A stretch of DNA of 63,350 nucleotides, filler included, from Collodictyon triciliatum (lineage: Eukaryota), in NCBI GenBank assembly GCA_043381765.1. It is 9 parts of 9 records of this genome, joined end to end, with 100 filler letters (N's around TTAATTAATTAA, not from the genome) between each part and the next. Parts side by side here need not be neighbours in the genome. Positions count along the whole stretch, not along the records: positions 7,067 to 14,023 come from JBHJMP010004143.1; 8 more parts are not named here. One strand, 5' to 3'. Shown here piece after piece: positions 2,131 through 56,409 of the stretch (position 1 is its first letter; every line of letters starts with the position of its first letter). Below the pieces are notes generated by a model that was not told the DNA's origin, did not search any database, and saw nothing but the letters and a program-made list of their open reading frames with translations. The position numbers and the translations under genes are program-made.

Positions 2131-5100
2131 GCCTTCAGCAGCATCTGGTCTGATGGGTCGAGTCGGTCTACGGTACTCATAACGATTCCTGAAATCATGT
2201 CGTTTGGGTCATAATTTGCTTTTTCGATGGCCGCATTGTCGATGCGAGCAGTTCTTAATTGAGTATCAATAATAATGAAGCCGACAGCTAGTCCAGCATT
2301 CAGCAATTGTTTTAATATAAGAGGATTCCCGTTTGATTTCGCAGTTAAGGTTGATTCCATCTGGAGGTGGGGTAATTTGGTGTTCAGCAGCTTTATTCAG
2401 TTAAAAAGAATCGGAAACTGGAAATTTTTCAAACATAAACCGAAAATAAAAATAGAAGCAGAAAATGGTATGGTTACAGCAGGTGCGATGTTATCTACAA
2501 CTATCGTTTGGCAGGTTATTAAGCGAACGGTTTCCGGCGGTAGAGGCTCGAGAGTCATTCTTTTTGAAGACAGAGGGTTGATTATATTATTATGGAGTCA
2601 CAGATCCATCGAAAATCTTAAAGCATGAGCTAGGTACGGAGGAAGAAAAGAGAAAGAAAAAGAGGACTCTTTGTGTTTATGTCAAAGAATATTTTTAAAT
2701 TATAAGAAGATAAAATGAAAAAAGTTCAACAGTAGAAACCTCTGGATATTTGCCTGCTTCAACAAAGGTTTGATGAGTTCTGTGTGGGAGTCAAATGCCG
2801 TAATCGAGGAAATGAGGACAACAGGTGAGAGTTCTTTGACAATCGCCAACAGAATTTCGACGGAAGACTCATCCATATCCCCCAAATCATCCAGGTATAC
2901 AATCAATGCTTGCCCCAAGTCACTGGCTATTTTTCTCAAGGATTCAATAACCAAGTTCTTTAAAGCCTTGAATATGTCTTCTGGAGACAGAGGTTGCTCT
3001 AATTTTTTCTCGGAACTTTGCAATTGCTCTTCATTTTGAATAGAAAAGCTTATCCTTCTATCCTTTCCAGATGATAATCCAATCACATCATCTTCTGGCC
3101 TCGAGGGCGTAAGGTAAGGATTGCTCTGACTTGTTTGCACGGAGGGTTTAAGAGGAACAGGAGTCTGAGAATCAAACGTAACAACCCTTCTATTTCTGGA
3201 TCTCAGTCTATTGAATACCGTGGTGGGGTTACTCGAACCAGCAGCAGCGGCAGCTTTGGATTCGCTTCTTTCAGAGGTTGATGTGTCTTCTTCAGTGGGA
3301 GGTGATATCATTTCTTCCAGCATACCATGATCAATATTCATAATACCACAAATAAGTGTCTTCCAAACACCAAGAGTATTTTGGTTTTGCGATTTGGATT
3401 CGATCAAAATCGATGGTGTGATAAGGTTTTGACTGATAGTGTATAACTCATGCAAAAGACTAGTCTTCCCCATACCTATTATGTGAAAGAGTACGAGAGA
3501 GCTGTCATTATCGTTGCTTGACTTTCATAAGAAATCAAAACATGAATAATTATTTATTTATTTTTTTTAAAAAAAAATACATGAAATAAGTCGATGAAAC
3601 CATACCAGGCTCACTGTCAACTATCACAATCGCAGATTGTTTTGTCTGATTACTGCTGTCTATGACCCTTTGAATAATGTCTTTCTCTTTATCTCTTCCG
3701 TAAAAAAAGTTTCTCGAAAGTTTCTAGCAAACAGAAAAGGATTGGGTGAGACAATCGTGTGTCGTAAAAAGATAGTACAAAGTGAAAATAAAAGAATTTT
3801 GAAAGTTGCAAACAACACACGCTTTTCTTTCTTTGTATATCAATGTTCAAAATACCATTCTGCTATATTGCTGAGTGCCCCTTTTGGATTGATTAGCTGA
3901 ATATATCTGCACGGCTACGGATTTCCCTTTCACTTTAATAGACCCAAGACTCTTCATCGCTAGGTACCTTTATTATTATTATTTTTATCGATGAACATTA
4001 GAAATAAGGCTCTCTCAACCGAATGAAAAGAAATATACGGTAATTGACCATATCTCAATTTTTTTTTTTTTACACTTTGTATCATTCACGGAGACATTAC
4101 TATAAAAGAACAGGAATGTACAACAAAACAAGACTGGGTACCTGTCTAAACAGCTTTTTTGAGTCTTCTCGTCACAAATGATATCCTCTTCTGAAGCGTT
4201 GCATAGGCGAGCAGACAGGTTCACCAGATCTCCAACTATGGTATCGAGTTAAGACTTGCATAAAACCCCGAATACGAAAAATTGAAAGCGAAGTACACAT
4301 TACCATGAGTATCAATCGGATATATATATATGACATTTGAGAACCTAATGCATATTCCCATCGGTTTTGGTTTCCCACAACGCCACAAAATATTGTACCC
4401 GACGTAACTCCCGCAGAGCACTTGAGCTTTAGACCGGATGCCATGCTCTGAATTTCTTGTGCCGCTATGATTCAACGAATGTCAACGTCAGCACCGTGTC
4501 ATGGCGGAATCGTCTGAAAGTCTGTATGATGCAATCGAAAATACTTACCAACGACACACCGATACGCGTCGTCGTAATAAGACGTCGGTGGGAGCCCAAA
4601 GCATGCAATCAGAACACAGCCTTTGTCGTCCTGCATTATGTGAATGGAAAACGACATGGCAATTAAAATGAAACAAAAAGTGATATGGCATGTTCCTTTT
4701 TGCTGTATTTACAGGCTGTGTACCAAAGTGATACGTACCATCATAAACTGTCGGATGAACCCTTTCTCCTTCTTGAGAATCTTCTGTGCTGAATGGAAAA
4801 ACTTTTGTGCGACATTAGCTGTGGCTTGGTCACGGAATGTAAGGCCCGGTATCTTTACAAACATCACAGAAATCTTTCGTATCTCATTGAGCATGGATGT
4901 TGTATAGCTGGCACGAAACCGGGAATAGACCTAGTTGGTATTGAGAATATATCGCGTATGTACGGTGGTATCGCAGAATGCATAACAGGCGACAGCGTAT
5001 TTCATCAACTATCGATAATCCATAAAACAAAACAAAACAAAACAAAACAAAACAAAACAAAACAAAACAAAACAAAACAAAACAAAACAAAACAAAACGA

Positions 5101-6754: not shown

Positions 6755-7173
6755 GAATAATAAATAATAATTAATAATGAATAATGAATAATAACAATAA
6801 TAATAACAATAATAATAACAATAATAATAACAATAATAATAACAATAATAACAACAATAATAACAACAATAAAATAACAATAAAATAACAATAATAATAA
6901 CAATAAAATAACAATAAAATAACAATAAAATAACAATAAAAATAACAATAAAAATAACAATAAAATNNNNNNNNNNNNNNNNNNNNNNNNNNNNNNNNNN
7001 NNNNNNNNNNTTAATTAATTAANNNNNNNNNNNNNNNNNNNNNNNNNNNNNNNNNNNNNNNNNNNNAGAAGAAAAAAGAGAGAAGAAAAAAGAGAGAAGA
7101 AAAAAGAGAGAAGAAAAAAGAGAGAAGAAAAAAGAGAGAAGAAAAAAGAGAGAAGAAAAAAGAGAGAAGAAAA
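6755..7173. repeat. (AAT/AAC)n and (AGAAGAAAAAAGAG)n repeats flanking the first spacer
   Basis: Direct reading; two unrelated contig-end repeats. Confidence 0.9.
6967..7066. other. Artificial contig spacer (44 N + TTAATTAATTAA + 44 N)
   Basis: Identical 100-bp element with stops in all six frames, recurring about every 7.05 kb. Confidence 0.98.
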
Positions 7174-7724
7174 AGGGTCGGTGGTTCTTTTGTTCTGGAG
7201 GGACTGGTCTCGTTCGCACAAGTTTTATCAGGGCGGCTTCGGGATTGATTAATTGATTGCTTGATTCATTTCACAGACGAGAAAGCCCAGCACAAAAAGT
7301 TCGGAAAAAACAGATTGTGGTTCATGTATCCAATGCCAACAACAGATATACTATGATTACCATAATAGTCAAGTCGATTCAAAAGGAGCCTAAGACGATT
7401 TGGTTCATGGGTATATCTACTGAGGTCAAATATTTATATATAGAATAACAGATCTACATAGAACAGTCAGGACAATGAAAGCGGATTGATCAAAAAGAAA
7501 AAGTGCTGTCGAGTTGGAGAATAAGCACACGCCAAGCCAAGAGACGTTGAAGGCAATGCTGAGTGACAGAGCAAGACTTAATAGAGCATAAAGAAGATCA
7601 CTTGAGAAAACTGGAGTGTAAATGGAGCCCTTAGAGAAAACACTTTTTCAATGTTTTTTTGCCCCGAAACTTCTAACATTTTTTATTCTTCCTTTTCTTT
7701 CTTTTTCAATTCAGTCTGAGCTGC

Positions 7725-10700
7725 ATGGAGGCGGATCAGATATTCACCTTCGATGGTGTTCAATTAAAGATCGTCAGGCTCGACCACCCAAATGAGAGCC
7801 CCTTCTCTGTGCAAATATACGACTCGGAAGCTGAAGAACGTTGGATCGACGCTGATTTTATCACCCCGCCAGAGTTTTGCTTGGACTCTTTGGCAGAAGC
7901 CTACCGTTATACGTTCAGAATGGAAAAAGCATCACTTACCCAGTCACAAAGCTGCTACAAGCTTATGGTTTCCTGGGATGCAGTAAAAAAATACCAACAG
8001 GACGGCAGCATTGTGGAGACAAGAATCCCGCGTGTCTACCTGCAAAGTGGGCTTTTCGGTGGCGGTCTGTGGAGCTCCAAAACATCTCCAAATGTTAAAT
8101 TTAGTGGAGATATTGAAAGACAAAAAATGAGGGAAAAATCACTTACGAAAAATTCCAATAACTCGAGAAGTTCAACGATTACAACAGGGAACCAGCCAAA
8201 AACAGATGCGACTGGAACTGAAACTGGAACTGGAACTGGAAATAGTGCTGGTCCTAGTTCTGAATCTACAAAAGACGGAACATTTTCAAAGAAGCAAAAT
8301 GACATGCCTGCGCCAACTAAAGATGGACGTGAAGGATTTGAAAAGAATTGGCCATTCTGCAACATTAAACCGGAGGATTTGAGAAAGCTGGATTCTTCTC
8401 CAAGTGGTAACATCCCATCAAATACCCTAGAGTTCGCTCACCACTACCGATTTGGAAAGTTAAAGAAATATAAATCATTGATTCTACATGTACTCAAAAT
8501 TGCATCCAGCATGGAAAAGTTAGAAATTATTCACATTTGGGAAGTTGGATTGCTCGCCCGCTCAAATGATGTTAAAGTATGTAGCAAATTATGGAGAATC
8601 ATAACACGGCCTGACTTAGATGAACTACATTCTCATCCTCATTACGTCAGATGCTTGGCAGAACTTTTGTTGTTCTCCGATTCTCATCTTCATCAAAAAC
8701 ACATAGATGAAGTCATGAAGAAAGTACTTCACAAAATTAAGATTAAATCAGACCATGAAAAGGAGGAATATAAAAGATCATTTGAGAAAAAAAATCGTGA
8801 AATGCAGTTTACCACTGAGGCAAAAATAGAAGAAAATGGTGAGATACCACCAAATTACTCAGAAATTCAGTATTCAGAAGTCACAGATGAAAATCCAGAA
8901 AAGCCTCTGTCATCGAGTGGTGTAGATGCATCAAAAGAACCTAATCAACAATCACATATGGAGAACCAAGGGAATGGAGAGAGTACCACTAGTCCATCAG
9001 AACCCATACTTGAATCGAGTAAACGGAAAGCAAAAAGAAGTGAAGACAAGCCAAAAGATGCAGCGAACATGACGAAAGAAAAGGATGACGCAGGAGAAGA
9101 AAACCCGATGGATGACCACCAAATGCAATTTCTCATTCACTCTGCCGGATTTCTTCTGGATTCTATTATCTTGAGAAATATCAAATTAAATGTGTCCGAA
9201 GTTGATAAAGATATGTTAAACTTCTTCCTTCTTGAGTCAAGATTGAGTCGACTAGACCAATATACCCATATTTTTGAAAAGGCTTACCAAGGATTTATTC
9301 GAATATTTCATTCTTCTGAATCATCCTCAATTAACTACTGGAAACCGAACGAAACTCAATCAGCTGATACAACGCAAAATCAGTCAAAAAGGAAAGTTTT
9401 GGAAGGCCATGGAGATTGTCAATTCCATATTGAATCTAATGATCAAAGAGAATGTTGGTATGAAGATTACATATTATTTAAATCTCTTATCCTGGCCCAT
9501 CGTTTGGAAGAAGCAGTTGCATTTTCAGAACACATATTTTCCATGGACAAGAAGTCATATCTTTCATTCTTTGTACTGGAGGAATTCGTCAGAATAGCAC
9601 AACTACCTATTAAAGCGTGCTCCAAATCAGCATTAAAGTATATCGAAAAATTGTTGAGTGACAGTTTTTTGGTTGAACAAAAGCCATACTATGGGCACCA
9701 TGCTATATATCAGCTCCGAAAACTTGGACAGTACGAAATTCATTCAAAAAAAGTACATACAATCCTTCAAAATAAAACGAATACAGTTAAAAAGAGCATT
9801 TTCATGGACCTAGTAAAGAAAGTGCTCGGAACAAACTTGGAACGACTGATTACACAGGATTTGCAGACTGATGAGAATTTTATTCCCACCTTTTTATTGA
9901 ACCAATCTCAACAAGAATTCAAGAAATGGAACTTCTCGACAGATCAAAACTGGGGCTCAAATGAGTATGAAGGAGACGAGGATGAAGATGAACTAGAAAA
10001 TGATGAGGTATATATTGAGTTAAAAGCAAAGAAAAACTTCAACGACAACCACAACACTGATGCAAACTCTATAGTCAATGATTTTTTGAAGGGGAATTCA
10101 GGGACGCTAATCATAATGGGTAATTCTGGTGCTGGAAAGTCAACTTTTGCCAGGAGATTATACGAAAGACTGCGCTCAGACACTTCCCAGAAAAAACACC
10201 CTATCTTCATTTATTTACCAGCGGTCAAGGAACCCAGAAGATTAGAGGAATACGTAAAGAAAAAGATGAATCCAGAGTATGAAAAACTGATGAAGTCAAT
10301 TTCGGCTGTCTTCATCATGGATGGATATGACGAGTTGAAAGAAGCTGGAACAGTAAAAATCATCAAGGAAAACTTGAAGTTTCTCCAGAAACACCACATC
10401 GTAATTACATATCGATATAATCTACAACAATCAAAACACGATTTGATGAAAATATTCGGGATAGAAGAATATCAAGGAATAAGTCCTTTGCAATTCATGA
10501 TTTTGCAACCTTTTGGTGATGAACAAGTAAAGAGATACATTGAATCATTCGTAGAATCTCAACCAAAAATATCCACTTCAAGCAAGGACTTAGTTTCCAA
10601 GGTGACGAGCTCTCCGAGTCTAAGGGAATCAGCAACATCTCCTTTCATTCTCTCATTGATTATGAGGGTTCTGCCTGAGTATATGGAAAAGAAAAAGTCA

Positions 10701-13700
10701 GAATCCGATGACAATCTATCCAGGTATGAAATATATGATAAATTTATAACTAATTGGCACCAGAGAGCGGAGAAAAGCTCGAAAGACACACGGCTTTTCA
10801 ACAAAAAGAATTTTGAGGACTATTCCATAAGATTATCCCAAAAACTTATCGAAAAGGATACAACGGTTGCCGTAATGAGTAGGAATAAAGGACTTCTTGT
10901 TTCGTCTAGTGAATGGAATGAATTCATCGGAGACACTTATGAGTTAACAGAATTGAGAAAAGGAGCTCTTGTGCGCAGATTTAATGTATCAGAAAACGAA
11001 GAGCAATATGGCTTTGTTCATCGCTCTATCCAAGAGTTTTTCGGTGCCAAGAAAGCCATTGAAGAAGTAGAAAAAGATGTATGGGGGGATGAAAAGAAAT
11101 CACTATTCTGTAATTTGAAAGATAAAGACTTTTTGGTGAAGCTTTTCATTGCAGATTATGCATTCAAGAATCCTGAATTTGTTGAAAAGCTGATAAAAAT
11201 CGTCCATGAATCAAAAGAAGGAAAAGAATTAGGAAGAAAACTCCGGTCAGCCAGCATAGCTATCGCAATACTAAACTATGCTAGAATACCACTTCACGAT
11301 TTGGACTTCAAGGGAATAAATATTCCTGGGGCCGACCTATCTCAAGCTATTCTGCAAAACGTGGATTTTTCTGGGGCAGACTTAAGTGGGGTCTCTTTCA
11401 TCGATGCTGACTTGAGAGGATGCACATTTGATAATGCAACACTAGAGAACACCAACTTCGGACAACTCCCGAAACTGAAGCATAACCACCCAGTAACTTG
11501 TGGAATAGCCAATCCAAATGCAGATGATGAAAATGTTCTCTTGTACACCGCTACAAAAAATGTGATTTCAGTGTGGGATTTGGAATCATGTGATTCACAT
11601 GCAAAGTTGAAACATGAAAATGTAAGTGCTATGACTTTGATTAAGAAGAACGAAGATTCTTATCTAGTAACAGGAGACAAATCTGGTATCATTTGTATTT
11701 GGGATACCATCTTGTGCGAGAAAATATTTGAAATACCAGGTATAGAAACAGGAGCAGCTCAAATAAATTGTATCTCATTTAACCTTGAGCTGCAGTCAAG
11801 GTTCAAAATTGACAGAAGCGACTCTTTTTTATTCGTTTGTGGAAACATAATTGGTGAGATAACATTCTTCCTGCTAAATCCGAAGCATGTTTACGAAAAC
11901 TCACTTAAAATAATAAAGAAAGTGAAAATGCCTGGCGAGATTACTGCAATAGACTTCTTTTTTGACAGAGAAAAATCGTACATTGTTTACGGAGGGAGCC
12001 TCGGATTCATCGCATATCAAGAGATAGAATTTAATCCTGAGACCATCAAAATATCATTAAGTGACGCCAAAACGGTTAATTTTGAAAAAAAAATTACGAC
12101 GCTCACAGCAATTAAATACCAAGACAGATACAAAATTGCTTTTGCAATAGAAAAAGACATTCACATCCTTGATTCCAGCACTCTCGACCAACCACCAAGG
12201 AAGCTTGAAAGTAGTCATGAAAAAAATATTCGAGATATTCAGTGGATTCCTTCAGACACCTCCGAGCCAGATTTCCTTGTGTCATGTGGAGCTGATAAAA
12301 TGGTTTACGTGTGGAATGTGTCTGGTGGTTCTGTCGCATATCCACTTTTTGGACAAGAAAATGAGGTATCAAAACTTAGTGTTTTCAAATACTTGGGTGA
12401 ATCCTATGTGGTTGGATGCTGTCAAGACAACTATGCCTGGATTTGGAGGGTACGCTCCAATGAGCCGTTGAAAAAACCAGCTGGACATAATCGAGCAATC
12501 AACGCGCTATCGTTGGTGACAAACATAAGAATCGAATCCAAAAGAGACGGAAATGAGCCAAAAAGTACAGAAATTACAAATTATCGCAGTTCTGTCCGTA
12601 AGGTTGTATCCTCTTCCTCCGTGATTGTGACAGGAAGCAGCGATAAACATGTGAAACTGTGGGATTTTGCAACAGGGAACTGTCTTGCAACGAAAAAATT
12701 GGACGCTATGATATCAAAGGTTATTACCAGAAAAACGATAAGCTCTTTTGAAGTTTATTTCCAATTACGTGGCGAAGAAAAGTTCATTTATTCAATTTAT
12801 TCGTTTGATTCGAATATCTCGCCCCATATTATTGTTGAAGAAACAGAAAAAATCACAGATTTCAGCGTTTTCAAAATCGGAGAGAATGATTTCTTAGCTG
12901 TATCATCTAAGTCTGGGCTCAAGGCTTATCAACTCCCTTCAAATGGGTTGGTAAATGAGATAATCAAACCTTCATATACTTTGGTTGATGGCAGAGTTGG
13001 TACATTTTTCATACACACTTCAGAGATACCGAATACTGTGGATATTATTACGGTTCAAGAAGGGATGGTTCGTTATCAAACATATACCTTTAGAAAACCG
13101 TCCTCCACACAGATAGAACAATTAGAAATAGAATCCGAAATCAAGCCCAAAATCGAGCCTGAACAAGGACTTGACACTCCCCTGACACCCATATCGATCA
13201 GAACCAAACTGAATGAAAGCGAGAATACAATATCTACCATCGTCGGGGATGAAAATGGGTTGTTGTACCGATTTGATTTCTCTTTGGATGGAAGTGAACC
13301 AAAGCAAGATGTTTTATTTGAAGGAGAAGACCCTATCTATGCATGTGACACATTCGAATTAGGTGATGTTGGTTATGTGGCGTTTGGGGGCCGCGATGGA
13401 TTTCTACGCGTCGTTGGAGTCTCAAAAGAAGATGAGGAACCAGTTTTTGAGAAGCAAATTCACAACCAAGTCCGTGCAATCAAGTATCACCAAGACACGA
13501 ACACCCTCGTTACCACAGGTGAAAACGGGTTCATGTATGTGTGGACACTTGCGCTTAAAAACGAAAAAGGCGGTTCAAGAGAAATTGAGATGTTAGTCGC
13601 CTGGACTTCTCACACAGTTCTTCACGGAGATGGTATTAGCACAGATGGCCTTAAAAAATGCTCAGAACCGAATCGTCGTCTTCTTGAACAGTTAAAATGC

Positions 13701-13712
13701 TCAGAGGTTTAA
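7725..13712 (+). CDS. NLR-like STAND protein, 1995 aa: N-terminal leader - helical domain - NACHT NTPase - pentapeptide repeats - WD40 propellers (paralogue A)
   Basis: Uninterrupted ORF. Walker A IMGNSGAGKST (~10119-10145), Walker B VFIMDGYDE, SPFILSL, winged-helix FVHRSIQEFF. Pentapeptide repeats GADLSQAILQNVDFSGADLSGVSFIDADLRGCTF (~11300-11460). WD repeats such as LVSCGADKMVYVWNV and VTGSSDKHVKLWDF. Confidence 0.92.
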   Translation: MEADQIFTFDGVQLKIVRLDHPNESPFSVQIYDSEAEERWIDADFITPPEFCLDSLAEAYRYTFRMEKASLTQSQSCYKLMVSWDAVKKYQQDGSIVETRIPRVYLQSGLFGGGLWSSKTSPNVKFSGDIERQKMREKSLTKNSNNSRSSTITTGNQPKTDATGTETGTGTGNSAGPSSESTKDGTFSKKQNDMPAPTKDGREGFEKNWPFCNIKPEDLRKLDSSPSGNIPSNTLEFAHHYRFGKLKKYKSLILHVLKIASSMEKLEIIHIWEVGLLARSNDVKVCSKLWRIITRPDLDELHSHPHYVRCLAELLLFSDSHLHQKHIDEVMKKVLHKIKIKSDHEKEEYKRSFEKKNREMQFTTEAKIEENGEIPPNYSEIQYSEVTDENPEKPLSSSGVDASKEPNQQSHMENQGNGESTTSPSEPILESSKRKAKRSEDKPKDAANMTKEKDDAGEENPMDDHQMQFLIHSAGFLLDSIILRNIKLNVSEVDKDMLNFFLLESRLSRLDQYTHIFEKAYQGFIRIFHSSESSSINYWKPNETQSADTTQNQSKRKVLEGHGDCQFHIESNDQRECWYEDYILFKSLILAHRLEEAVAFSEHIFSMDKKSYLSFFVLEEFVRIAQLPIKACSKSALKYIEKLLSDSFLVEQKPYYGHHAIYQLRKLGQYEIHSKKVHTILQNKTNTVKKSIFMDLVKKVLGTNLERLITQDLQTDENFIPTFLLNQSQQEFKKWNFSTDQNWGSNEYEGDEDEDELENDEVYIELKAKKNFNDNHNTDANSIVNDFLKGNSGTLIIMGNSGAGKSTFARRLYERLRSDTSQKKHPIFIYLPAVKEPRRLEEYVKKKMNPEYEKLMKSISAVFIMDGYDELKEAGTVKIIKENLKFLQKHHIVITYRYNLQQSKHDLMKIFGIEEYQGISPLQFMILQPFGDEQVKRYIESFVESQPKISTSSKDLVSKVTSSPSLRESATSPFILSLIMRVLPEYMEKKKSESDDNLSRYEIYDKFITNWHQRAEKSSKDTRLFNKKNFEDYSIRLSQKLIEKDTTVAVMSRNKGLLVSSSEWNEFIGDTYELTELRKGALVRRFNVSENEEQYGFVHRSIQEFFGAKKAIEEVEKDVWGDEKKSLFCNLKDKDFLVKLFIADYAFKNPEFVEKLIKIVHESKEGKELGRKLRSASIAIAILNYARIPLHDLDFKGINIPGADLSQAILQNVDFSGADLSGVSFIDADLRGCTFDNATLENTNFGQLPKLKHNHPVTCGIANPNADDENVLLYTATKNVISVWDLESCDSHAKLKHENVSAMTLIKKNEDSYLVTGDKSGIICIWDTILCEKIFEIPGIETGAAQINCISFNLELQSRFKIDRSDSFLFVCGNIIGEITFFLLNPKHVYENSLKIIKKVKMPGEITAIDFFFDREKSYIVYGGSLGFIAYQEIEFNPETIKISLSDAKTVNFEKKITTLTAIKYQDRYKIAFAIEKDIHILDSSTLDQPPRKLESSHEKNIRDIQWIPSDTSEPDFLVSCGADKMVYVWNVSGGSVAYPLFGQENEVSKLSVFKYLGESYVVGCCQDNYAWIWRVRSNEPLKKPAGHNRAINALSLVTNIRIESKRDGNEPKSTEITNYRSSVRKVVSSSSVIVTGSSDKHVKLWDFATGNCLATKKLDAMISKVITRKTISSFEVYFQLRGEEKFIYSIYSFDSNISPHIIVEETEKITDFSVFKIGENDFLAVSSKSGLKAYQLPSNGLVNEIIKPSYTLVDGRVGTFFIHTSEIPNTVDIITVQEGMVRYQTYTFRKPSSTQIEQLEIESEIKPKIEPEQGLDTPLTPISIRTKLNESENTISTIVGDENGLLYRFDFSLDGSEPKQDVLFEGEDPIYACDTFELGDVGYVAFGGRDGFLRVVGVSKEDEEPVFEKQIHNQVRAIKYHQDTNTLVTTGENGFMYVWTLALKNEKGGSREIEMLVAWTSHTVLHGDGISTDGLKKCSEPNRRLLEQLKCSEV

Positions 13713-14023
13713 AAGAAAATAAAGTATGTATTTATTCCTCTTTTATTTTAAAATAATAAATCATGTCCAAGTTATATTTTAGAGTAAATGTCCGAGTTAG
13801 TTGTTTTTTTTTTTACTTCATTCATCTCAGGCGCATCTTATTTTTCCCTTTAGGTTACAAACTACTCGCCCAGTCTACAACTGACTCGATTCGTCACTCC
13901 ATCACTTCATCACTTCATCACTTCATCACCCACTCACTCACTCACTCCATCACTCCATCACTCCATCACTTCATCACCCACCCACTCACTCACTCACTCA
14001 CTCACTCACTCACTCACTCAATC

Positions 14024-14123
14024 NNNNNNNNNNNNNNNNNNNNNNNNNNNNNNNNNNNNNNNNNNNNTTAATTAATTAANNNNNNNNNNNNNNNNNNNNN
14101 NNNNNNNNNNNNNNNNNNNNNNN
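14024..14123. other. Artificial contig spacer
   Basis: N44-TTAATTAATTAA-N44. Confidence 0.98.
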
Positions 14124-18416: not shown

Positions 18417-19198
18417 TTAGTTTTGCTTATCGTCAGACCCGCTGCTCTTATTTTGAAACGAGAATGGATATCGGTGGTGGCGCCTGGAGGGGAGGATAAC
18501 GCGGGACCATTTCGGTGTTAGGCGTGGAGGGACGAGGCCGCCTCCAGGAAGAGTGATGTTTGCGGCCTGTGTGCCTTTCTTTGTCTGCACCAGGTCAAAC
18601 TCAACCTAAAGTACAACATTCATGAGACAAAGAAATCTATGGGTTCTTGCTTCAGTACATCGAGTCTTGAATGAATATGACAAAATGACAAATAATAATT
18701 GAGAAAACAGAAGATGAAAGATGAAAGATGAAAGATGAAAGATGAAAGATGAAAGATGAAAGATGAAAGATGAAAGATGAAAGATGAAAGATGAAAGATG
18801 AAAGATGAAAGATGAAAGATGAAAGTTGAAAGTTGAAAGATGAAAGTTGAAAGATGAAAGATGAAAGTTGAAAGATGAAAGTTGAAAGATGAAAGATGAA
18901 AGATGAAAGTTGGAAGATGAAAGTTGAAAGATGAGAAATATAAAATGAAAAAAGAAAAAAAAATGAAAGAGACCTGTTCTCCTTGAAAAACATCCTTGTA
19001 ACCTTTGGACTTAATCTCCGAATGGTGGAAAAAGACAGCCTCCCCCGTGGCATCGACATGGATGTATCCATAGCCGCGGTTCGGCTCGAAGTTCTGGACG
19101 ATGCCGGAGTGTGTGCCATACGAGCGGCCGAACGGGGCGACAGCGACGCGGGTGTTAAGTGCCGCAGTTCTGAGAGCGGAGGCGGTTGCAGACCACAT
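18417..19198 (-). CDS. Cold-shock domain protein, two exons (19198-18974, 18605-18417), with an N-terminal presequence-like extension
   Basis: [15 protein letters not shown] (RNP1), VFFHHSEI (RNP2), [22 protein letters not shown] completed across a GT-AG intron that contains a (GATGAAA)n repeat. Stop at 18417. An upstream in-frame start cannot be excluded. Confidence 0.88.
18711..18932. repeat. (GATGAAA/GTTGAAA)n intronic repeat
   Basis: Direct reading. Confidence 0.95.
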
Positions 19199-20020
19199 TT
19201 CCTCGACCTGAGAGGCGGACTGTGCTTCAAACGAGGGTGCTTTGTGGGTGCTGGGGGGGCGAGTCGAAAGAGAAGGCAAGCTGATTTGTTGAGGCGACCA
19301 AGAAGAGATCATGGCGTTGATCAAAAGTTGGGTGTATGATCGGCCATGTGAGAAGCTCAGTGCGATGTAAGGAACCACTCTTACACGTCCATTATCATAT
19401 GTAAATATGCGTACTATATTCCACAGTGCAGGCGGCAATTATTAGATTATGACTATCAATTTTGAGTTTAATTTATAAAATCCAGATGTAACAGGACAAT
19501 TCTGGACATCATTTTCCACATATGCATCAACATCTGCACAGGAGGAAGCCAATACAGCGCAGACGGTTTTGTCCCGTATAAATCCATCATGTCCCTCACA
19601 CAACCTCCATTTGCCACAGGCTGCACAACTGGCCAGTCATAGAATCCCATCCGCCCATTCAACCGGAGCACGGTATAAAAGCACAACACACCAGCGACTC
19701 TGGCGTATATATACGACTCCCAACCGCGCTCAAGCTTGGCAGCCAATCGAACAGCAGCCAAAATACACAACGTCCTCTGCCCAGCGTAAACCCGGGTGAC
19801 ACCGCCCGCCGCAAGAGGCACAAACACAAATGCACACACACACACACACACACACACACAACGGAGGGGGACGAAAGGAGAAACCTGCGGGGGGCATGCA
19901 AAGACCTGCTCCCTGGCCGTGGAATCCACACCTGTCATGCACACCTGTCATGCACACCTGCCACAGCACAGAGAGAGAAAGATTAACACCGAGCCACCTG
20001 CACGCAGGAATCAAGAAACA

Positions 20021-20881
20021 ATGACGCGCGGGGGACTGGGACTGGGACGTGCAGCCAGGCTCGGGGCGGCGGCTGTGCTTGCGGTTGGGCTCCTGCTGGG
20101 GGCTTTGCCGTGCGGGGCGGTGCCTGTGGGCGGGGCGGGCAACGGGACGGCGTTTGGCGGGGCGGAGGAGGGCAGGGCGGTGCAGGAGGTGTACTGGAAC
20201 GACGGGGCGCGGTTCAACTGGGCGGGCGGGGTTGTGCTGAACAACCAGTGGGGCAAGTCGAGCGCAAACCCGGGGTACTCGCAGGCGATTGTCAAGAAGG
20301 ACGACGGGACGGTGGGGATGTGGTACGAGTGGTGGGGCAACGACAACCTGGTGAAGGCGTACCCGGCCGTGATCTTCGGGTGGCACTGGGGCTACTTCAC
20401 GGCGTACGGCCAGTACGGGCTGCCGTACCAGGTCGGGGCGGGCAAGTCGCTCAACATCGCGCTGTCCGCCGGGCACCGCAACCTGGCCGGCTACCAGAAG
20501 CTCAACTTCGCCTGGGACATCTGGGTGGCCCACAACCCAAACCCCCCGGTCCCCAACTACGAGATCATGGTCTGGCCCTACCGCGTCGCCCAGTACCCCA
20601 TCGGCGGCCGCGTCGAGACCGTCTCCTACTGGGGCGCCACCTGGGACCTGCACTCCGGCCAGATGTCCGACGGCCAGAACTCCTGGTACGTCTACTCCTT
20701 CCTCCGCACCTCAAACACCCTCAGCGTCTCCGGCAACCTCGCAGACTTCATCAACCACGTCTACCGCAAGGGCTGGATCCCGGGCTCCGCCTATGTCGTC
20801 GGCGCTGAGGTCGGCACAGAGGTCATCCAGGGCAAGGGCGAGTTCGACATCTACAGCTACCGCTTCGACGGCGCACGCTAG
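20021..20881 (+). CDS. Secreted glycoside hydrolase family 12 (endo-beta-1,4-glucanase/xyloglucanase-like), intronless
   Basis: Signal-peptide-like N-terminus (AAAVLAVGLLLGALPCGA). GH12 motifs LNNQWG, VKAYPAVIFGWHWG, NFAWDIW, nucleophile YEIMVW, acid/base EVGTEV. ATG 20021, TAG 20879-20881. Confidence 0.9.
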   Translation: MTRGGLGLGRAARLGAAAVLAVGLLLGALPCGAVPVGGAGNGTAFGGAEEGRAVQEVYWNDGARFNWAGGVVLNNQWGKSSANPGYSQAIVKKDDGTVGMWYEWWGNDNLVKAYPAVIFGWHWGYFTAYGQYGLPYQVGAGKSLNIALSAGHRNLAGYQKLNFAWDIWVAHNPNPPVPNYEIMVWPYRVAQYPIGGRVETVSYWGATWDLHSGQMSDGQNSWYVYSFLRTSNTLSVSGNLADFINHVYRKGWIPGSAYVVGAEVGTEVIQGKGEFDIYSYRFDGAR

Positions 20882-21078: not shown

Positions 21079-21179
21079 NNNNNNNNNNNNNNNNNNNNNN
21101 NNNNNNNNNNNNNNNNNNNNNNTTAATTAATTAANNNNNNNNNNNNNNNNNNNNNNNNNNNNNNNNNNNNNNNNNNNNT

Positions 21180-49264: not shown

Positions 49265-49364
49265 NNNNNNNNNNNNNNNNNNNNNNNNNNNNNNNNNNNN
49301 NNNNNNNNTTAATTAATTAANNNNNNNNNNNNNNNNNNNNNNNNNNNNNNNNNNNNNNNNNNNN
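49265..49364. other. Artificial contig spacer
   Basis: N44-TTAATTAATTAA-N44. Confidence 0.98.
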
Positions 49365-51360: not shown

Positions 51361-52613
51361 CAATTCGCGTGCGCTTAGTGCTAGATAAAAAGTGCAGAAA
51401 TGGCAGGGTTGAAAGGCTGATGTAGAAAAATGCATCCAACACGCGCCGCAAGCTGCACTACCCAGATTGCCAGCAGCTCAACCAATCTTAAAATCGCAAG
51501 GTAATTATCTATATCATTTAATAGTTTTTGACGCAAATACTCCCAGAGTCTGCAACGCAAACCTCCTCAACCCTAACCGCTCTGTTCAACTCCATTGAAT
51601 GGCAACGAAGAAAAAACCTCATCCAAACATATCCATTCGCTGCTCATTTCATGCATACTTTTTTTATTCTAAAAATCTTGGCTGTTGAGCCCGTCTCAAC
51701 AATCCTTCAATCAACCATCAGGCAAGTAGTTCCAAAGTAGGTGGGGATGTGTAAGAGATAGAAAAATAAAATCAGGGATATTTAAAAAGAAAATAAAGGA
51801 AAAAGAGAGGTCCTTGAGGCTTGATAAGAGACGCATGGATTTCTTTTGGGGACGCATGATAGTGTCCCACGAGCATGGGAAAAAAAAGGGACGGGTGATA
51901 TTGATTGGATGGGGGAGGGGGAAATACTGCTTTGATGGCGCAAGCTGTCGAAAAGGATGGTGAAAAGAGAAGTGAGGTTCGTTTGATAAGCACTAGGTCG
52001 AGTGCAAAGAGGACTTCTCTGCATGGTTGACTCACCTCCTTCCAGACCGTACTTGTGTCTTTTCAGTAGAGGTTGTCGAAGGGATTTCTCCCTCTTGCTT
52101 GCAAAACCTATGGGTATAAGCTTCCACTCCCTGGTGTCTCTCTCAGCCAAGGTCGGGAGTTTTGGCTTTGTTGCCGCAGGTCTTGCAAGTGGAATTGACC
52201 AGCTATTCAGGACTCACGTGTCATGAGGTGTTAGCTGCCTGCAGTCTCCCGGCTCAGGAAGTCTGTTAATGGGTTCGTTTGGGGTAGGGTATGGGTATGA
52301 TGGTCGGTATACCCATAGAGGAGGTCAGGACTGATGCGAGGTATCCAGGAGAGGATGTTTGGTTTCAAATTGTTTTGACACTCGACGGGTTGTGAAAGTG
52401 AGCAACATTTCCCCTCCCTCTTGAATGGCGTCTTCAGAAATCGGCCCTGGATGACTGAGATAGCTGCCAAGGTCGATATGTGTCTTAAAACCAAATGTAT
52501 CGCAAATCCTCCGGGGCGAAGGGAAAGAAAGATTCTTTGAGCCACCCTTCAAGATGGGGAACGTTAGTCCCCCAATGCGCTCATAGGCAGAGCGCCGGGC
52601 CACACTGGGCGAA

Positions 52614-53760
52614 TTAAAAGGAAGAGGCGGAGGCGTAACCTTCCTCCACAGACACGTCTGTGGCCCTTGTGTCGCCGTGTGGCTGGTGCGGTTCGTAGTC
52701 ACCGGCTTCACTTGCGTATGGCGGACTCCCCTGCCTGCAGGGCGAAACCTGATTCTTGCGAGGCTGCGTGGTTGTGGCAGCTTCTTTGTGCTGTATGTTC
52801 AGCTTGACCACGGGCGAGACAACGTCGGTGAGAGACTGGCCGCGTGTACGGATGTGGTTGGAAAACATGCCTTCACGATACTTGTGCTCGTTGGAGTGGG
52901 TACTCTCGTTGCTGTTGTGGGTGCGCTCCCGCTTTGTTCCAGTCTGCTCCGGCGTGTGGGCGGCCGTGGAGTTGGGTCTTTGGAACACAGACACCGATGC
53001 AGATGCACTCCTCTGGTGGGAGGACACCTGCTGGGCAGCTTTTTCGGCGATAGCAGCTTGGCGTGTTACTCTGCGAGTAGCATACGCGTCAGCCTTTATC
53101 GCGGAGGTGGCTGCCTCTGTCGGCTTTGTCTGTTTGAGGGTGCTGCTGAGTGTTGTCTGTTTGCAGACATCGGAGTTGCCGCTCGCCTTCGCTTGGGTGG
53201 CGGCGGGCTTTGTTTGTGTCCGCTGTGGGGCGGTGTTGGGTGCGGCTTTGCCTGTGAGCGTGCCTGCCGAGTTGGAGGGCACGTTTGGGTCTTTGTCCGC
53301 AGTGGACGGGGAGCCTCTTGTGGAGTCTTTGGGGTTAGCGGGGGTTTTGCCATGGTTGGTGTGTGCGCTGACTCTGGAATCGGCGCGAGCTGTGGTGTGG
53401 CTTCGCCTTTGTTGTGGGGCAAAGCGCTCGGCCGTCTCCCTGCGGGGGTACGCAAGGCCCAGGCCGCTCGACAGGTCGGATGCCAGCAGCACAACGCCCT
53501 CCGTGGCGCACTCACGGGTGCGGTGGACTTCGCACAGCTGCTCCAACAAGCGCGGGCGTGTGGCGTGCGTCAGTGTCTCAGTGTACTCGCCCACAAGGCG
53601 CACCACACAGACGGCCGGGTAGAGTCCCTTCTGCTGCAGCCCCGCTGCTCGCTCCACCGGTCGCGTCCGGTAATGCTCGTAGACCATTCTCGTCGTCAAG
53701 TTGAGGCTTGGTTGCCATCCGTGTAGTTTTTGTGCAAGACCGAAGGGGCACCGAACACAA
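52614..53760 (-). mobile_element. Probable degenerate retrotransposon ORF1/gag-like remnant
   Basis: GC-rich, intronless, A/T/Q/P-rich low-complexity ORF with a decayed knuckle (LCEVHRTREC) and frameshifts at the 5' end. Upstream of, and on the same strand as, the zf-RVT remnant. Confidence 0.45.
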
Positions 53761-56309
53761 CCTACCTTTAAATATAGCGCATAAAGAGATATAGATATTC
53801 TCGTTTGGACAAGAAAAAACAGAACTTTGAAGCCATTATTTGGATGCTTTGTGTGTAAATGACTTAAAAATAATCAGGAAAAGAATACAACTATCTTTCT
53901 TGTTCAAATAAAGGTGACATACACGCCGAGTATGGATACATGCCCGACCAACACAGCGCCATCGCCATCAGAACCCTCTAAAAATCAAAGTAAGTCTGCA
54001 GTTGTCTATCAATATATAACTATCAGAACCGGAAGCTTAATTGAACTGTCGATATTTATTCATCTCCAAGTGCCCAACTGTTTTGTCAGATGCTCCGCAA
54101 TTATATCCATCCAAGACATCTCTTTGATTCCATCGCGCTAATTCGATTTTTTCCAAGCACTGGATTAGATGATATTTCGCAGCCTCATCCGCATGTTGTT
54201 TGCATGGCCATGGTGCATCTCGCAAAGGTTTCTCTCTGCCATGAAAGTGAGAAAAGTGCATCGTCCAAAATTCAATCTGCTGCACATCATTCATCTTCGA
54301 TGTGTAAGAGGATGCAATTTTTCTGTTTTCTTACACCTTTCATGCAAGATAAATATTTTATTTTTCTCGTTCTTCTTGTCTCGGAGCGCAATCTCCGATG
54401 CATAAGTGCCTATTTCTCGCCACCTTTCGCAGCTTATGACATCGACTGAATGCGGATATGTGATGCATGTTTCCAGTTGCTAGGATTATATTGTGCTTCT
54501 TTGTGAAACGGTTGCTCATCGCTGCGGTCGAATATTGCAGCGTCTATCAATCGGTCAATGAACTCAAAGCATCACTAATATAATTTAGCCAAGCAAATAA
54601 AAAAAGTGATCATCTCCTCTTGTAAGTAAATATTGAAGTTCAAGGATAATGGAATCAAAATTATTCGAAAAATTATTTATTCGTTTGATATCGGGGGTTT
54701 TAAAGTTCCAGTTTACATTCTAAAAACTTGATGTTTATCTTGTGTTTGGCATCGAGCCTCTTCATTGATGACTCTGCACTGTACTCGGTAAATGACTGTT
54801 CTGATGTAATTAAAAAACGACAGATGCGTCAATCCTTGCGACTTGGAAAAAGAGATATATTTTGCACAGAATACTGATGATAGTATTTGGTGTCAAATAA
54901 GTTTTGATTTGAAAAAAATGACAGTAATAGCGAAGAAATGAAAGTGTCACTTATTTACAGCAAAAGCAAGAAGGAAAAGCAAACCCGTTTCTTTGTCTTT
55001 CCAACGGCAAGTTTTGGTAGCCCGCGATAAGGCTATCGAGCGGAAAACACGCTTTGCAGACTTTTTTTGGCTGCTGATGTATTTACATCGTGAACACGCA
55101 CTTTGCATAGGAGTTCGCCCTGATTATCAAAAGTCATCGCTTCGACCGATTGGATGATATCTATTGAGAAAGTCTAGACACATGCGCAGCGCATCCGCAT
55201 GAACTAAATCAAGAGTACAAATTTAAAATTATATTGGTTTTTGATAAAAAAAAAGGCCACTGATTTGCATGGAAGTAAAGAGAATACACTACATATCTCC
55301 TTTTCATATTTATTTTTAACAAGCTATTAGTTCAGCGAACACATTTAGATGAAAAAAAACCTACAATTTCACTCGACCAAATACACTCCAAATCTCTGAG
55401 ATAATCTCAACCAAACTTGTCATGGGTATTCGATGCATACCTAAAAGGAAAGAAGTTACGGTTTGAGTCTTTACTATTTATGATTGTCGAGGATTTACAA
55501 AGGAAGGAAAGTTCACATCCCAATCTCTTTCTCGTAGCAAAGCTTGAGAGGTTTGTGTCATGGGTGTGACGCTGAAGAAATCAAAAAATTGGAATGTATT
55601 TGTAATAAAGTGTACAGATTAATATATGTGAGTTTTCTTGTGATTGTTTGTGTGAAATATAGGCAGTTTTACCTATTATTATGCAATAGTACTATATCGT
55701 GCCAAACTGAAACCTTTACTTCATGAGGTAATACTTGAGCAGCGTTGAATTCGAGCGATATCTCCACTAAAAACCAATGAGCAGAGAAATACGAAAACAG
55801 ATGAAATCCTCTACAATAAACTAAAATAGCGTGATTGCTGAATCGAATATATGAATGATGTATTTCATAATTTTTGGGAGAACGTTTGAATAAAACGATG
55901 GACATAATATTCATCACACCAGTCTACCATTTCGTCTGCACCGTGTTCGGTAATGATTTTGTCAGCGCATAGAAGTCCTGCACCACGGTCTAGTGCTTGT
56001 CTGCAAAAGTCTCCGCAAGTAAAGACCTATAATTTGAAATGAGAGAGGGTGAGATATTATAGAAATTAATTTGTCTGCATTTTTTTTTAGAAGATATGAG
56101 GGAGTATGTCGGAGTTGGATGAGAGGAGAATAATTTTTTTAATGGATAATCAAATGAATTACAATTATTTCATTGTCTGATTATCTTCCGATTCGGTTCA
56201 TCGTCCATCCATAAAGCTCATTCTATGAGACGTTTTTCAAGGGGTTTTCATATTGTTGCTCGTTGTGCTTCACGGTCTGCGTTAAATTTTTAAAAATAAA
56301 AATAAATAA

Positions 56310-56409
56310 NNNNNNNNNNNNNNNNNNNNNNNNNNNNNNNNNNNNNNNNNNNNTTAATTAATTAANNNNNNNNNNNNNNNNNNNNNNNNNNNNNNNNNNN
56401 NNNNNNNNN
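56310..56409. other. Artificial contig spacer
   Basis: N44-TTAATTAATTAA-N44. Confidence 0.98.

Follow-up and report, generated by a model that had tools for sequence, protein, structure and literature searches.

How might a receptor be held at a membrane by an acylation signal that lies roughly 110 residues inside it? The question is raised by two genes, here called A and B, in a 63,350-nucleotide stretch of DNA from the protist Collodictyon triciliatum (the window; nine parts of assembly GCA_043381765.1 joined end to end). Gene A (7725..13712, + strand) is a single open reading frame (ORF) for a protein of 1995 residues, in which a leader is followed by a linker, an ARM_5-like helical region, a NACHT domain, pentapeptide repeats, and WD40 repeats. 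Gene B (28573..34005, − strand), a single-ORF paralogue encoding 1810 residues with the same architecture, lies tail-to-tail with A in the window. Both proteins have the P-loop NACHT NTPase and the C-terminal repeat sensor region of signal transduction ATPases with numerous domains (STAND) that resemble nucleotide-binding, leucine-rich repeat (NLR) proteins; as predicted from their sequences, the two are paralogues of each other and NLR-like STAND receptors. The leader of each ends in a diglycine, and the residues immediately after it read as a myristoylation signal. We suggest, giving the proposal an even chance of being right, that the leader is a pro-domain that would be cut after the diglycine, exposing a Gly for N-myristoylation and leaving the receptor tethered to a membrane.

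Leader A (residues 1-113; 7725..8063, + strand), predicted to be mostly beta in low-confidence AlphaFold2 models, ends in L-F-G-G. The initial annotation of this DNA had placed an LxGG ending directly before a hidden myristoylation motif, and both the sequence (LFGG/GLWSSK) and the coordinates proved correct: residues 110-119, LFGGGLWSSK, occupy 8052..8081, with G112-G113 at 8058-8063 and G114-K119 at 8064-8081, so that the proposed cut would fall after G113 and the proposed myristoyl acceptor would be G114. The counterpart claimed for the paralogue is likewise present. Leader B, read from the translated ORF (residues 1-106; 33688..34005, − strand), ends in L-H-G-G, and residues 103-112, LHGGGQLHSK (33699-33670, − strand), are followed by F-P-C-C, placing Cys residues at +9 and +10 from G107. 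In both proteins the diglycine stands at the end of a domain, after the last predicted strand and directly before the rest of the protein. N-myristoyltransferase requires Gly at position 1, an uncharged, non-aromatic residue at position 2, S, T, C, A, G, or N at position 5, and no Pro at position 6, with Lys favoured; G-L-W-S-S-K in A and G-Q-L-H-S-K in B agree with this consensus, in a register shared with six relatives. A pattern of the form GX2XXS is given for myristoylation in one published account (PMC2708883).

The leaders themselves are very divergent, as had been noted from the start. The WIDAD stretch is their only BLASTP match (8/18 identical, E 0.018), and the junction is the only part of this stretch that is well conserved, the remainder being impossible to align between A and B. 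The motif is encoded by ctt ttc ggt ggc ggt .. tcc aaa in A and by tta cac gga gga gga .. tct aaa in B; with codons this different, the match is not the result of recent gene conversion and has been preserved as protein sequence. There is one L.GG site per protein, whereas G...[ST]K is found at one place in B and at two in A. Since 81 L.GG sites are found in 201,131 residues of the relatives, one per 2000 residues is about the background rate, and the weight of the site comes from its location and its recurrence in other proteins. Behind the motif in A, the linker expected there (residues 120-230; 8082..8414, + strand) is rich in S, T, N, G, and K, longer than that of B, and not alignable with it. 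It is of low complexity, and the predicted local distance difference test score (pLDDT) is below 50 from residue 110 on; for both reasons the segment after the motif is probably accessible.

The evidence that carries the proposal comes from other proteins. Relatives were taken as the 150 best of 889 matches (E <= 0.001) in a HMMER search with residues 1-1180 of A, a sample to which the statements on relatives below refer, and their N-termini were scanned for the junction. Six further proteins of the A/B NACHT clade, a total that may be higher beyond the best 150, carry N-terminal leaders of about 85-130 residues that end in it: P0033 (FLPKLCGG/GQTSSK), P0114 (FIPKLLGG/GQTSST), P0127 (IPKGLGG/GGCCSK), P0086 (HTRGLGG/GGVCCK), P0026 (YAKGLGG/GNVCCK), and the fragment P0154 (VKGLGG/GGVCCK). 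The GLGGGGCCSK of P0127 is similar to the LRGGGC..S N-termini that the initial annotation had tentatively ascribed to ciliate NACHT-WD40 proteins. Together with A and B they share a gapless 12-mer, x-x-[L/G]-x-G-G/G-x-x-[S/C/H]-[S/C]-[K/T], and all eight have three Gly, S or C at +5, and K or T at +6; were each cut after the second Gly, all eight mature proteins would begin G1-x-x-x-[S/C]5-[K/T]6. The stricter pattern GGG..[SC][SC][KT] occurs five times in the 196,475 residues of the 150 relatives, always at residues 88-130, and in shuffled controls (n=200) at a mean of 0.025 and a maximum of 1. A matches this pattern; B deviates from it by a His at the first S/C position.

The six proteins form two leader subfamilies in addition to that of A and B. 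All contain NACHT, three (P0033, P0026, and P0154) also have pentapeptide repeats and WD40, and P0033 and P0114 have ARM_5 (PF23948) between leader and NACHT. An ARM_5 profile built from the relatives matches the helical region of A and B in two collinear pieces (hhalign, probability 78%, E 1.8e-5, and 91%, E 1.1e-6); given this match and the shared domains, the architecture of A and B is that of the junction-bearing proteins. In a FastTree phylogeny of the NACHT region (148 sequences) the junction-bearing proteins, A and B among them, fall within a single 45-leaf clade (support 0.83), and A plus B are sister to a protein of Diphylleia rotans (support 1.0). A transcript of that species is the best match, at 34% identity, followed by proteins of Mycoavidus and of Mortierellomycotina fungi; it is uninformative about the leader because its sequence begins just before NACHT. 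Among the 150 matches listed of the 889, all align to residues 713-1180 of A only (NACHT and the winged-helix part). The leader is thus not proven to be an orphan, since matches to the leader alone may rank below the best 150.

The strongest argument that the Gly after the diglycine becomes an N-terminus is that relatives lacking a leader carry the same type of motif directly after the initiator Met. Of 134 Met-starting relatives, seven begin MG, and five of these fit the myristoylation pattern: MGCSSS (Hexamita inflata), MGCGAS, MGNTPT, MGATSSK, and MGNTQG. The MGATSSK of P0076 is the same motif as the internal GG/GQTSSK of P0033 and close to the GG/GLWSSK of A, and two other starts, MGWCCC (Entomortierella) and MASCCC, resemble palmitoylation sites. 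The ARM_5 plus NACHT core is common to the leader-bearing proteins and to the MG-starting P0061, P0076, and P0137, as well as to P0113, P0116, and P0122; P0041 and P0051 match the leader-bearing proteins only from the NACHT region onward. To judge from these sequences, N-terminal acylation appears to be a recurrent property of this NACHT clade, with the signal placed behind a leader in some members. A separate group of nine relatives (P0002, P0003, P0049, P0070, P0071, P0078, P0104, P0120, and P0121, one of them from Mycoavidus cysteinexigens) starts M[LF]PI[NS].. with a P-loop near residue 160, which suggests a common N-terminal signal or module of another kind.

According to our proposal, the beta-rich leader (106-113 residues) would serve as a pro-domain, and an endoprotease would cut after the conserved x-G-G. 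The new N-terminal Gly (G114 in A, G107 in B), with x-x-x-S-K behind it, would then be N-myristoylated, S-palmitoylation of nearby Cys could reinforce the lipidation in B and in several relatives that bear Cys pairs, and the lipid would tether the receptor to a membrane. The protease might most simply be a cellular hydrolase that recognizes a C-terminal diglycine tail, and processing might be constitutive or regulated, as with precursors of the ubiquitin-fusion or SDE2 type. Three other routes to a Gly terminus were considered and set aside. The leader is unlikely to cut itself, because no candidate catalytic residue is conserved; the only invariant residues are a Leu and three Gly in the alignment of five relatives' leaders (A4) and three Gly in a seven-sequence alignment (A6). 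No Met precedes the Gly to allow an internal translation start, and the motifs of 2A-like skipping and of intein- or hedgehog-type processing are absent, the +1 residue being Gly.

The initial annotation had also supposed that the leader is a ubiquitin-like cap. Its diglycine does end a domain, as that idea would have it; structure and family comparisons gave the idea no further support. Mean pLDDT for the leader is 50.9 when A and B are modelled together and 51.0 with seven sequences; the models consist mostly of strands, and only a long hairpin in leader A (residues 76-110) reaches moderate confidence, with pLDDT 77-87 at residues 81-100; it ends at L110, just before FGG. Foldseek with this low-confidence model found no match in the PDB at E <= 0.001 (best E 0.51). 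Pfam searches at E <= 10 with all three leader sets returned nothing meaningful and no ubiquitin-like family, and PDB sequence and profile searches with the A and B leaders likewise returned no ubiquitin-like family. A PDB profile search with A6 gave as its best match the uncharacterised archaeal protein MJ0327 (E 0.0085, 20 bits), which we do not trust, as the alignment mixes unproven relatives; the same search with an alignment of chlamydial leaders (A8) gave no match. Searches for homologues of the leader were similarly unproductive: word-based searches with residues 1-330 of A found none among proteins of near or shorter length, the ESM Atlas gave no usable match for residues 1-130 of A or 1-90 of P0009, and a profile-seeded search with A4 for longer homologues retrieved the five query proteins and P0154 only. 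Metagenome scans yielded 338 pattern matches with A3 and 181 with A7, and a scan of genome contigs with A7 yielded 85, with no relatives in any of the three.

Leaders with a diglycine ending are found in another setting as well. Four relatives (P0009, P0010, P0038, and P0060) carry a different leader of about 85 residues, ending F[YF]L[TAS]RGLxGG/[S/A/L]P and followed by ARM_5 or TIR and then NACHT, with WD40 in P0009 and P0010. A DNA pattern of this RGLxGG ending occurs at eight places in a collection of prokaryote genomes, three of them on two contigs labelled 'MAG: Chlamydiae bacterium isolate OFTM140'. This metagenome-assembled genome (MAG) holds 10 copies of the leader, all ending in [L/V]-x-G-G, and among 301 sampled genomes of the phylum three have a match, one of which lies on a large contig and ends PGLLGG/SP. 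The copy in the other genome of the phylum (G207) lies within an open frame of 2534 residues. The individual leaders (L009-L018 and L020, from genomes G001 and G207) are mostly about 75-90 residues long and end in [R/P]G[L/V]xGG. GLxGG-ending leaders had been mentioned for effectors of amoebal symbionts when the locus was first annotated, and these copies, 10 in the Chlamydiae MAG and one in another genome of the phylum, are their counterpart. A domain with this ending is apparently undescribed. The residue after the diglycine in the chlamydial leaders is S, A, D, M, I, or L, with Pro next in 12 of 13 copies, and forms no myristoylation signal; the bacterium is not known to have an N-myristoyltransferase of its own. 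Leaders A and B, which have Gly rather than x-Pro after the diglycine, show no significant sequence similarity to the chlamydial ones (A5, A8; hhalign probability 1.8%). Neither Peptidase_C48 nor the A4 leader was found in the OFTM140 MAG, which, being incomplete, does not establish that they are absent.

Several observations weigh against a cleaved and lipidated leader. A hidden Markov model of the five leaders in A4 (P0033, P0114, P0127, P0086, and P0026) has no significant match in A or B, and hhalign of the A/B leaders against it covers 20 columns at the junction (probability 6%, E 0.006). By sequence comparison, then, the A/B leaders have no significant similarity to the others beyond the last strand and the motif, and the common junction could be convergent or too short to judge. 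The seven-sequence MAFFT alignment A6 does line up the last strand and beta strands 1-4, which is not a statistical test. The GG/G-x-x-x-S-K junction itself recurs in six other proteins of the clade; homology to A and B over the whole leader is not supported. The paralogue comparison consists of two copies, B carries His instead of S or C at +4, and loose myristoylation patterns are common in proteins. The GGG of A and B fall in one column in the trimmed leaders (A2) and in A6; alignments of longer N-terminal pieces (A1, A3) leave them unpaired, so that two of four alignments fail to join them. Nor does the leader imply any known diglycine-directed protease, since the comparisons above gave no ubiquitin-like match to its fold. 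Finally, all 10 copies of the chlamydial leader in the bacterium retain xGG with no Gly after it, from which it follows that conservation of the diglycine needs no lipidation signal and could be structural. Like an adaptor domain, the same leader is found on NACHT proteins and also on a complete, stand-alone leader plus TIR protein of 293 residues; a domain found alike on a sensor and on a small effector is typical of the adaptor (effector-associated) domains of STAND systems.

These last points fit a leader that is never cut and works as a small domain of adaptor or regulatory type, in homotypic recruitment or autoinhibition for example, with L-x-G-G-G as a structural cap or hinge and any lipidation supplied by internal S-palmitoylation in the members that bear Cys. 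Cys pairs do follow the motif in B, P0127, P0086, P0026, and P0154, and neither the AlphaFold2 models nor Foldseek gave a fold or enzyme match that points to processing. In A, P0033, and P0114, however, the motif has no Cys close by, a hinge would not need S/C at +5 and K/T at +6 in register with the third Gly in 8/8 proteins, and the uncleaved reading leaves the same motif directly after Met in leaderless relatives without explanation; we regard it as possible, if doubtful. The opposite extreme is that the junction is a coincidence, a short Gly-rich linker without specific function. The background rate of L.GG and the unpaired GGG sites in some alignments are in keeping with this, as is the comparison of A with B, in which shuffling the B region gave six identities in a 10-residue window, within ±20 positions and with WIDAD excluded, in 35/2000 shuffles, a modest result that by itself is suggestive rather than strong. 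Against 0.025 expected, though, the motif stands at the same place in six further proteins, and its conservation is exact in register, which makes chance a very improbable explanation.

It has also been proposed for this locus that the leader is a tripwire, its LxGG a bait for the deubiquitinase or papain-like protease of a pathogen or symbiont, so that cutting would occur only in infection and would lead to myristoylation, membrane recruitment, and activation. NLRs that sense proteases are known (NLRP1), as are viral and bacterial proteases that cut LxGG. The LxGG form of the junction and its presence on an NLR-like receptor speak for this reading, and the rapid evolution of the leaders of A and B, diverged tandem paralogues, is as one would expect of a bait region. 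Yet the L of LxGG is not kept, four of the eight proteins having Gly at P4 and L at P3, so that conservation is higher on the acylation side of the junction than on the bait side, and the leaderless, presumably always acylated relatives suggest that members of the clade are anchored to membranes already at rest and that anchoring is not an alarm. We think the tripwire improbable. Scarcely more probable is a broader version in which protist receptors of this NACHT-pentapeptide-WD40 clade would have a hitherto undescribed kind of pro-domain ending in a diglycine. A deubiquitinase-like protease of the cell itself or of an invader would remove it and unmask a myristoylation signal, with or without palmitoylation, making a proteolysis-gated membrane switch for an innate immune receptor, and the analogous diglycine leaders of chlamydial symbionts of protists would reflect an arms race over the processing machinery.

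Each element of the pro-domain proposal has a counterpart among known systems. In ubiquitin-ribosomal protein fusions, ubiquitin ends in a diglycine ahead of the functional protein. The N-terminal ubiquitin-like domain of SDE2 is removed by USP5 (PMC13572447). A and B resemble such precursors in having a small N-terminal domain whose diglycine directly precedes the functional protein; its removal would create a new N-terminus that sets the fate of the protein. They differ in the leader, which in A and B is longer (106-113 residues) and resembles ubiquitin neither in sequence nor, with confidence, in structure, and in the proposed new N-terminus, a lipidation signal where the known precursors yield an N-degron or a ribosomal protein. 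Caspase-dependent myristoylation is known for HTT and BFSP1, and for caspase-cleaved BID. Effectors of the AvrPphB family contain embedded acylation sites that processing exposes; Gly stands at P1' and Ser at P5', and Cys residues lie close by (PMC2708883). A and B share with these cases an embedded G-x-x-x-S, in some proteins accompanied by Cys for palmitoylation, that an upstream cut would make available for membrane targeting. The putative site in A and B is x-G-G, as opposed to the Asp of caspases or the GDK site of AvrPphB; the carrier is NLR-like, the piece removed would be a folded domain, and no self-protease is evident.

The leader protein of picornaviruses precedes the Gly-x-x-x-S/T of the capsid precursor VP0, and its removal is followed by myristoylation of the precursor. 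A and B are similar in placing a leader ahead of a Gly-x-x-x-S/T-type motif; the picornavirus leader, however, is part of a viral polyprotein cut by the leader protease or 3C, whereas A and B are cellular receptors without a protease domain. Plant coiled-coil NLRs such as RPS5 are acylated, and the same NACHT clade as A and B includes NLRs starting MG(C/N/A)xxS, with co-translational acylation motifs in 5/134 Met-starting relatives; in A and B the motif is internal. The chlamydial leaders, of about 75-90 residues (one longer), are alike in passing from a last strand to [L/V]-x-G-G ahead of ARM_5-NACHT-WD40 or TIR, and are unlike in their bacterial host, their lack of a myristoylation signal, and their lack of significant similarity to the A/B leaders. 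The double-glycine leaders of bacteriocins are short secretion leaders cut by the C39 peptidase of an ATP-binding cassette exporter. The A/B leader is by contrast a domain of more than 100 residues on a eukaryotic, cytosolic-type receptor of 1800-2000 residues, a comparison made with no search for C39.

Full-text literature searches, at the level of titles and abstracts, returned no account of a diglycine leader combined with an acylation signal on a NACHT or NLR protein, nor of the chlamydial leader. A processed leader, post-proteolytic myristoylation, and acylated NLRs are each known; their combination appears to be new. If A and B are in fact cut and lipidated, they would be the first NLR-type receptors whose membrane attachment is gated by the removal of an N-terminal domain, and they would provide a post-proteolytic myristoylation that depends on a diglycine and not on a caspase site. 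The proposal, if true, would give a testable handle on the localisation, and perhaps the activation, of orphan protist NLRs, and a search signature, GG/G-x-x-[S/C]-[S/C]-K at about residue 100 of NACHT proteins, with which more could be found. The diglycine-ended leader on chlamydial NACHT and TIR proteins, unrelated to those of A and B, is a second lead.

The remainder of each protein is laid out as follows. In A, the ARM_5-like helical region (residues ~231-770; 8415..10034, + strand), delimited by hhalign against the ARM_5 region of relatives, precedes NACHT (residues 794-943; 10104..10553; PF05729, 32.8 bits against a cut-off of 26.7), the pentapeptide repeats (residues 1183-1246; 11271..11462; PF00805, E 2.7e-15, and PF13599, E 1.5e-10), and a WD40 beta-propeller region (residues ~1270-1995; 11532..13709; PF00400 plus several propeller families). 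In B, the helical region, located by alignment to A and hhalign (residues ~157-590; 32236..33537, − strand), is followed by NACHT (residues 610-764; 31714..32178; PF05729, 27.0 bits against the same cut-off of 26.7) and, by Pfam, pentapeptide repeats (residues 997-1059) and WD40 propellers to the C-terminus (28576..31017). Outside the leaders the two proteins are 40% identical across A465-1991, and after the linker they share a helical region containing TLEFAH.YR .. EVG.LA .. LW.IIT .., although Pfam assigns residues 1-792 of A to no family. Relative to B, A has two low-complexity insertions, the linker (8082-8414) and one within the ARM_5-like region (~8757-9110, residues ~345-462). An in-frame stop (7674-7676) lies upstream of the gene A ATG, and in the region 7660-7724 a polypyrimidine tract leads to a CAG (7712-7714) 10 bases 5' of it. 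This CAG could be the 3' splice site of an intron in the 5' untranslated region; the start codon of gene A is a prediction. Sequencing runs gave shares of 0.10 or less, too small to count as evidence. A tblastn search of the window with both N-termini found no third copy.

The window is eukaryote-like in its long single ORFs, its microsatellites, and a G+C content of ~31-55% (2-kb windows). Runs of 44 N recur in pairs about every 7,050 bases (6967-7066, 14024-14123, 21079-21178, 28129-28228, 35177-35276, 42223-42322, 49265-49364, and 56310-56409; 704 N in total) and look like regular masking more than assembly gaps. The ORFs at 13763-14071 (+) and 18620-19438 (−) consist mostly of microsatellite-encoded repeats (THSLTHSL..) and are probably not genes. 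A G+C-rich island at 52000-54000 (0.55) holds overlapping long ORFs (52614..53699 −, 52677..53726 +, and 52756..53622 +) with no family assignment. Another, at 19796-20881 (+), has a G+C content of 0.53 against ~0.37 in its surroundings and CA-type microsatellite flanks; its ORF of 361 residues contains a domain of glycoside hydrolase family 12 (PF01670, E 3.2e-17), and its N-terminus, rich in Ala, Gly, and Leu, resembles a signal peptide. The island may represent an assembly chimera or a gene gained by horizontal transfer. An ORF of 257 residues at 2700-3473 (−), starting MGKTSLLHELY and weakly matching AAA_16 (E 9.7e-4), probably represents one exon of a further gene for a STAND or AAA ATPase, with no relationship to A or B.

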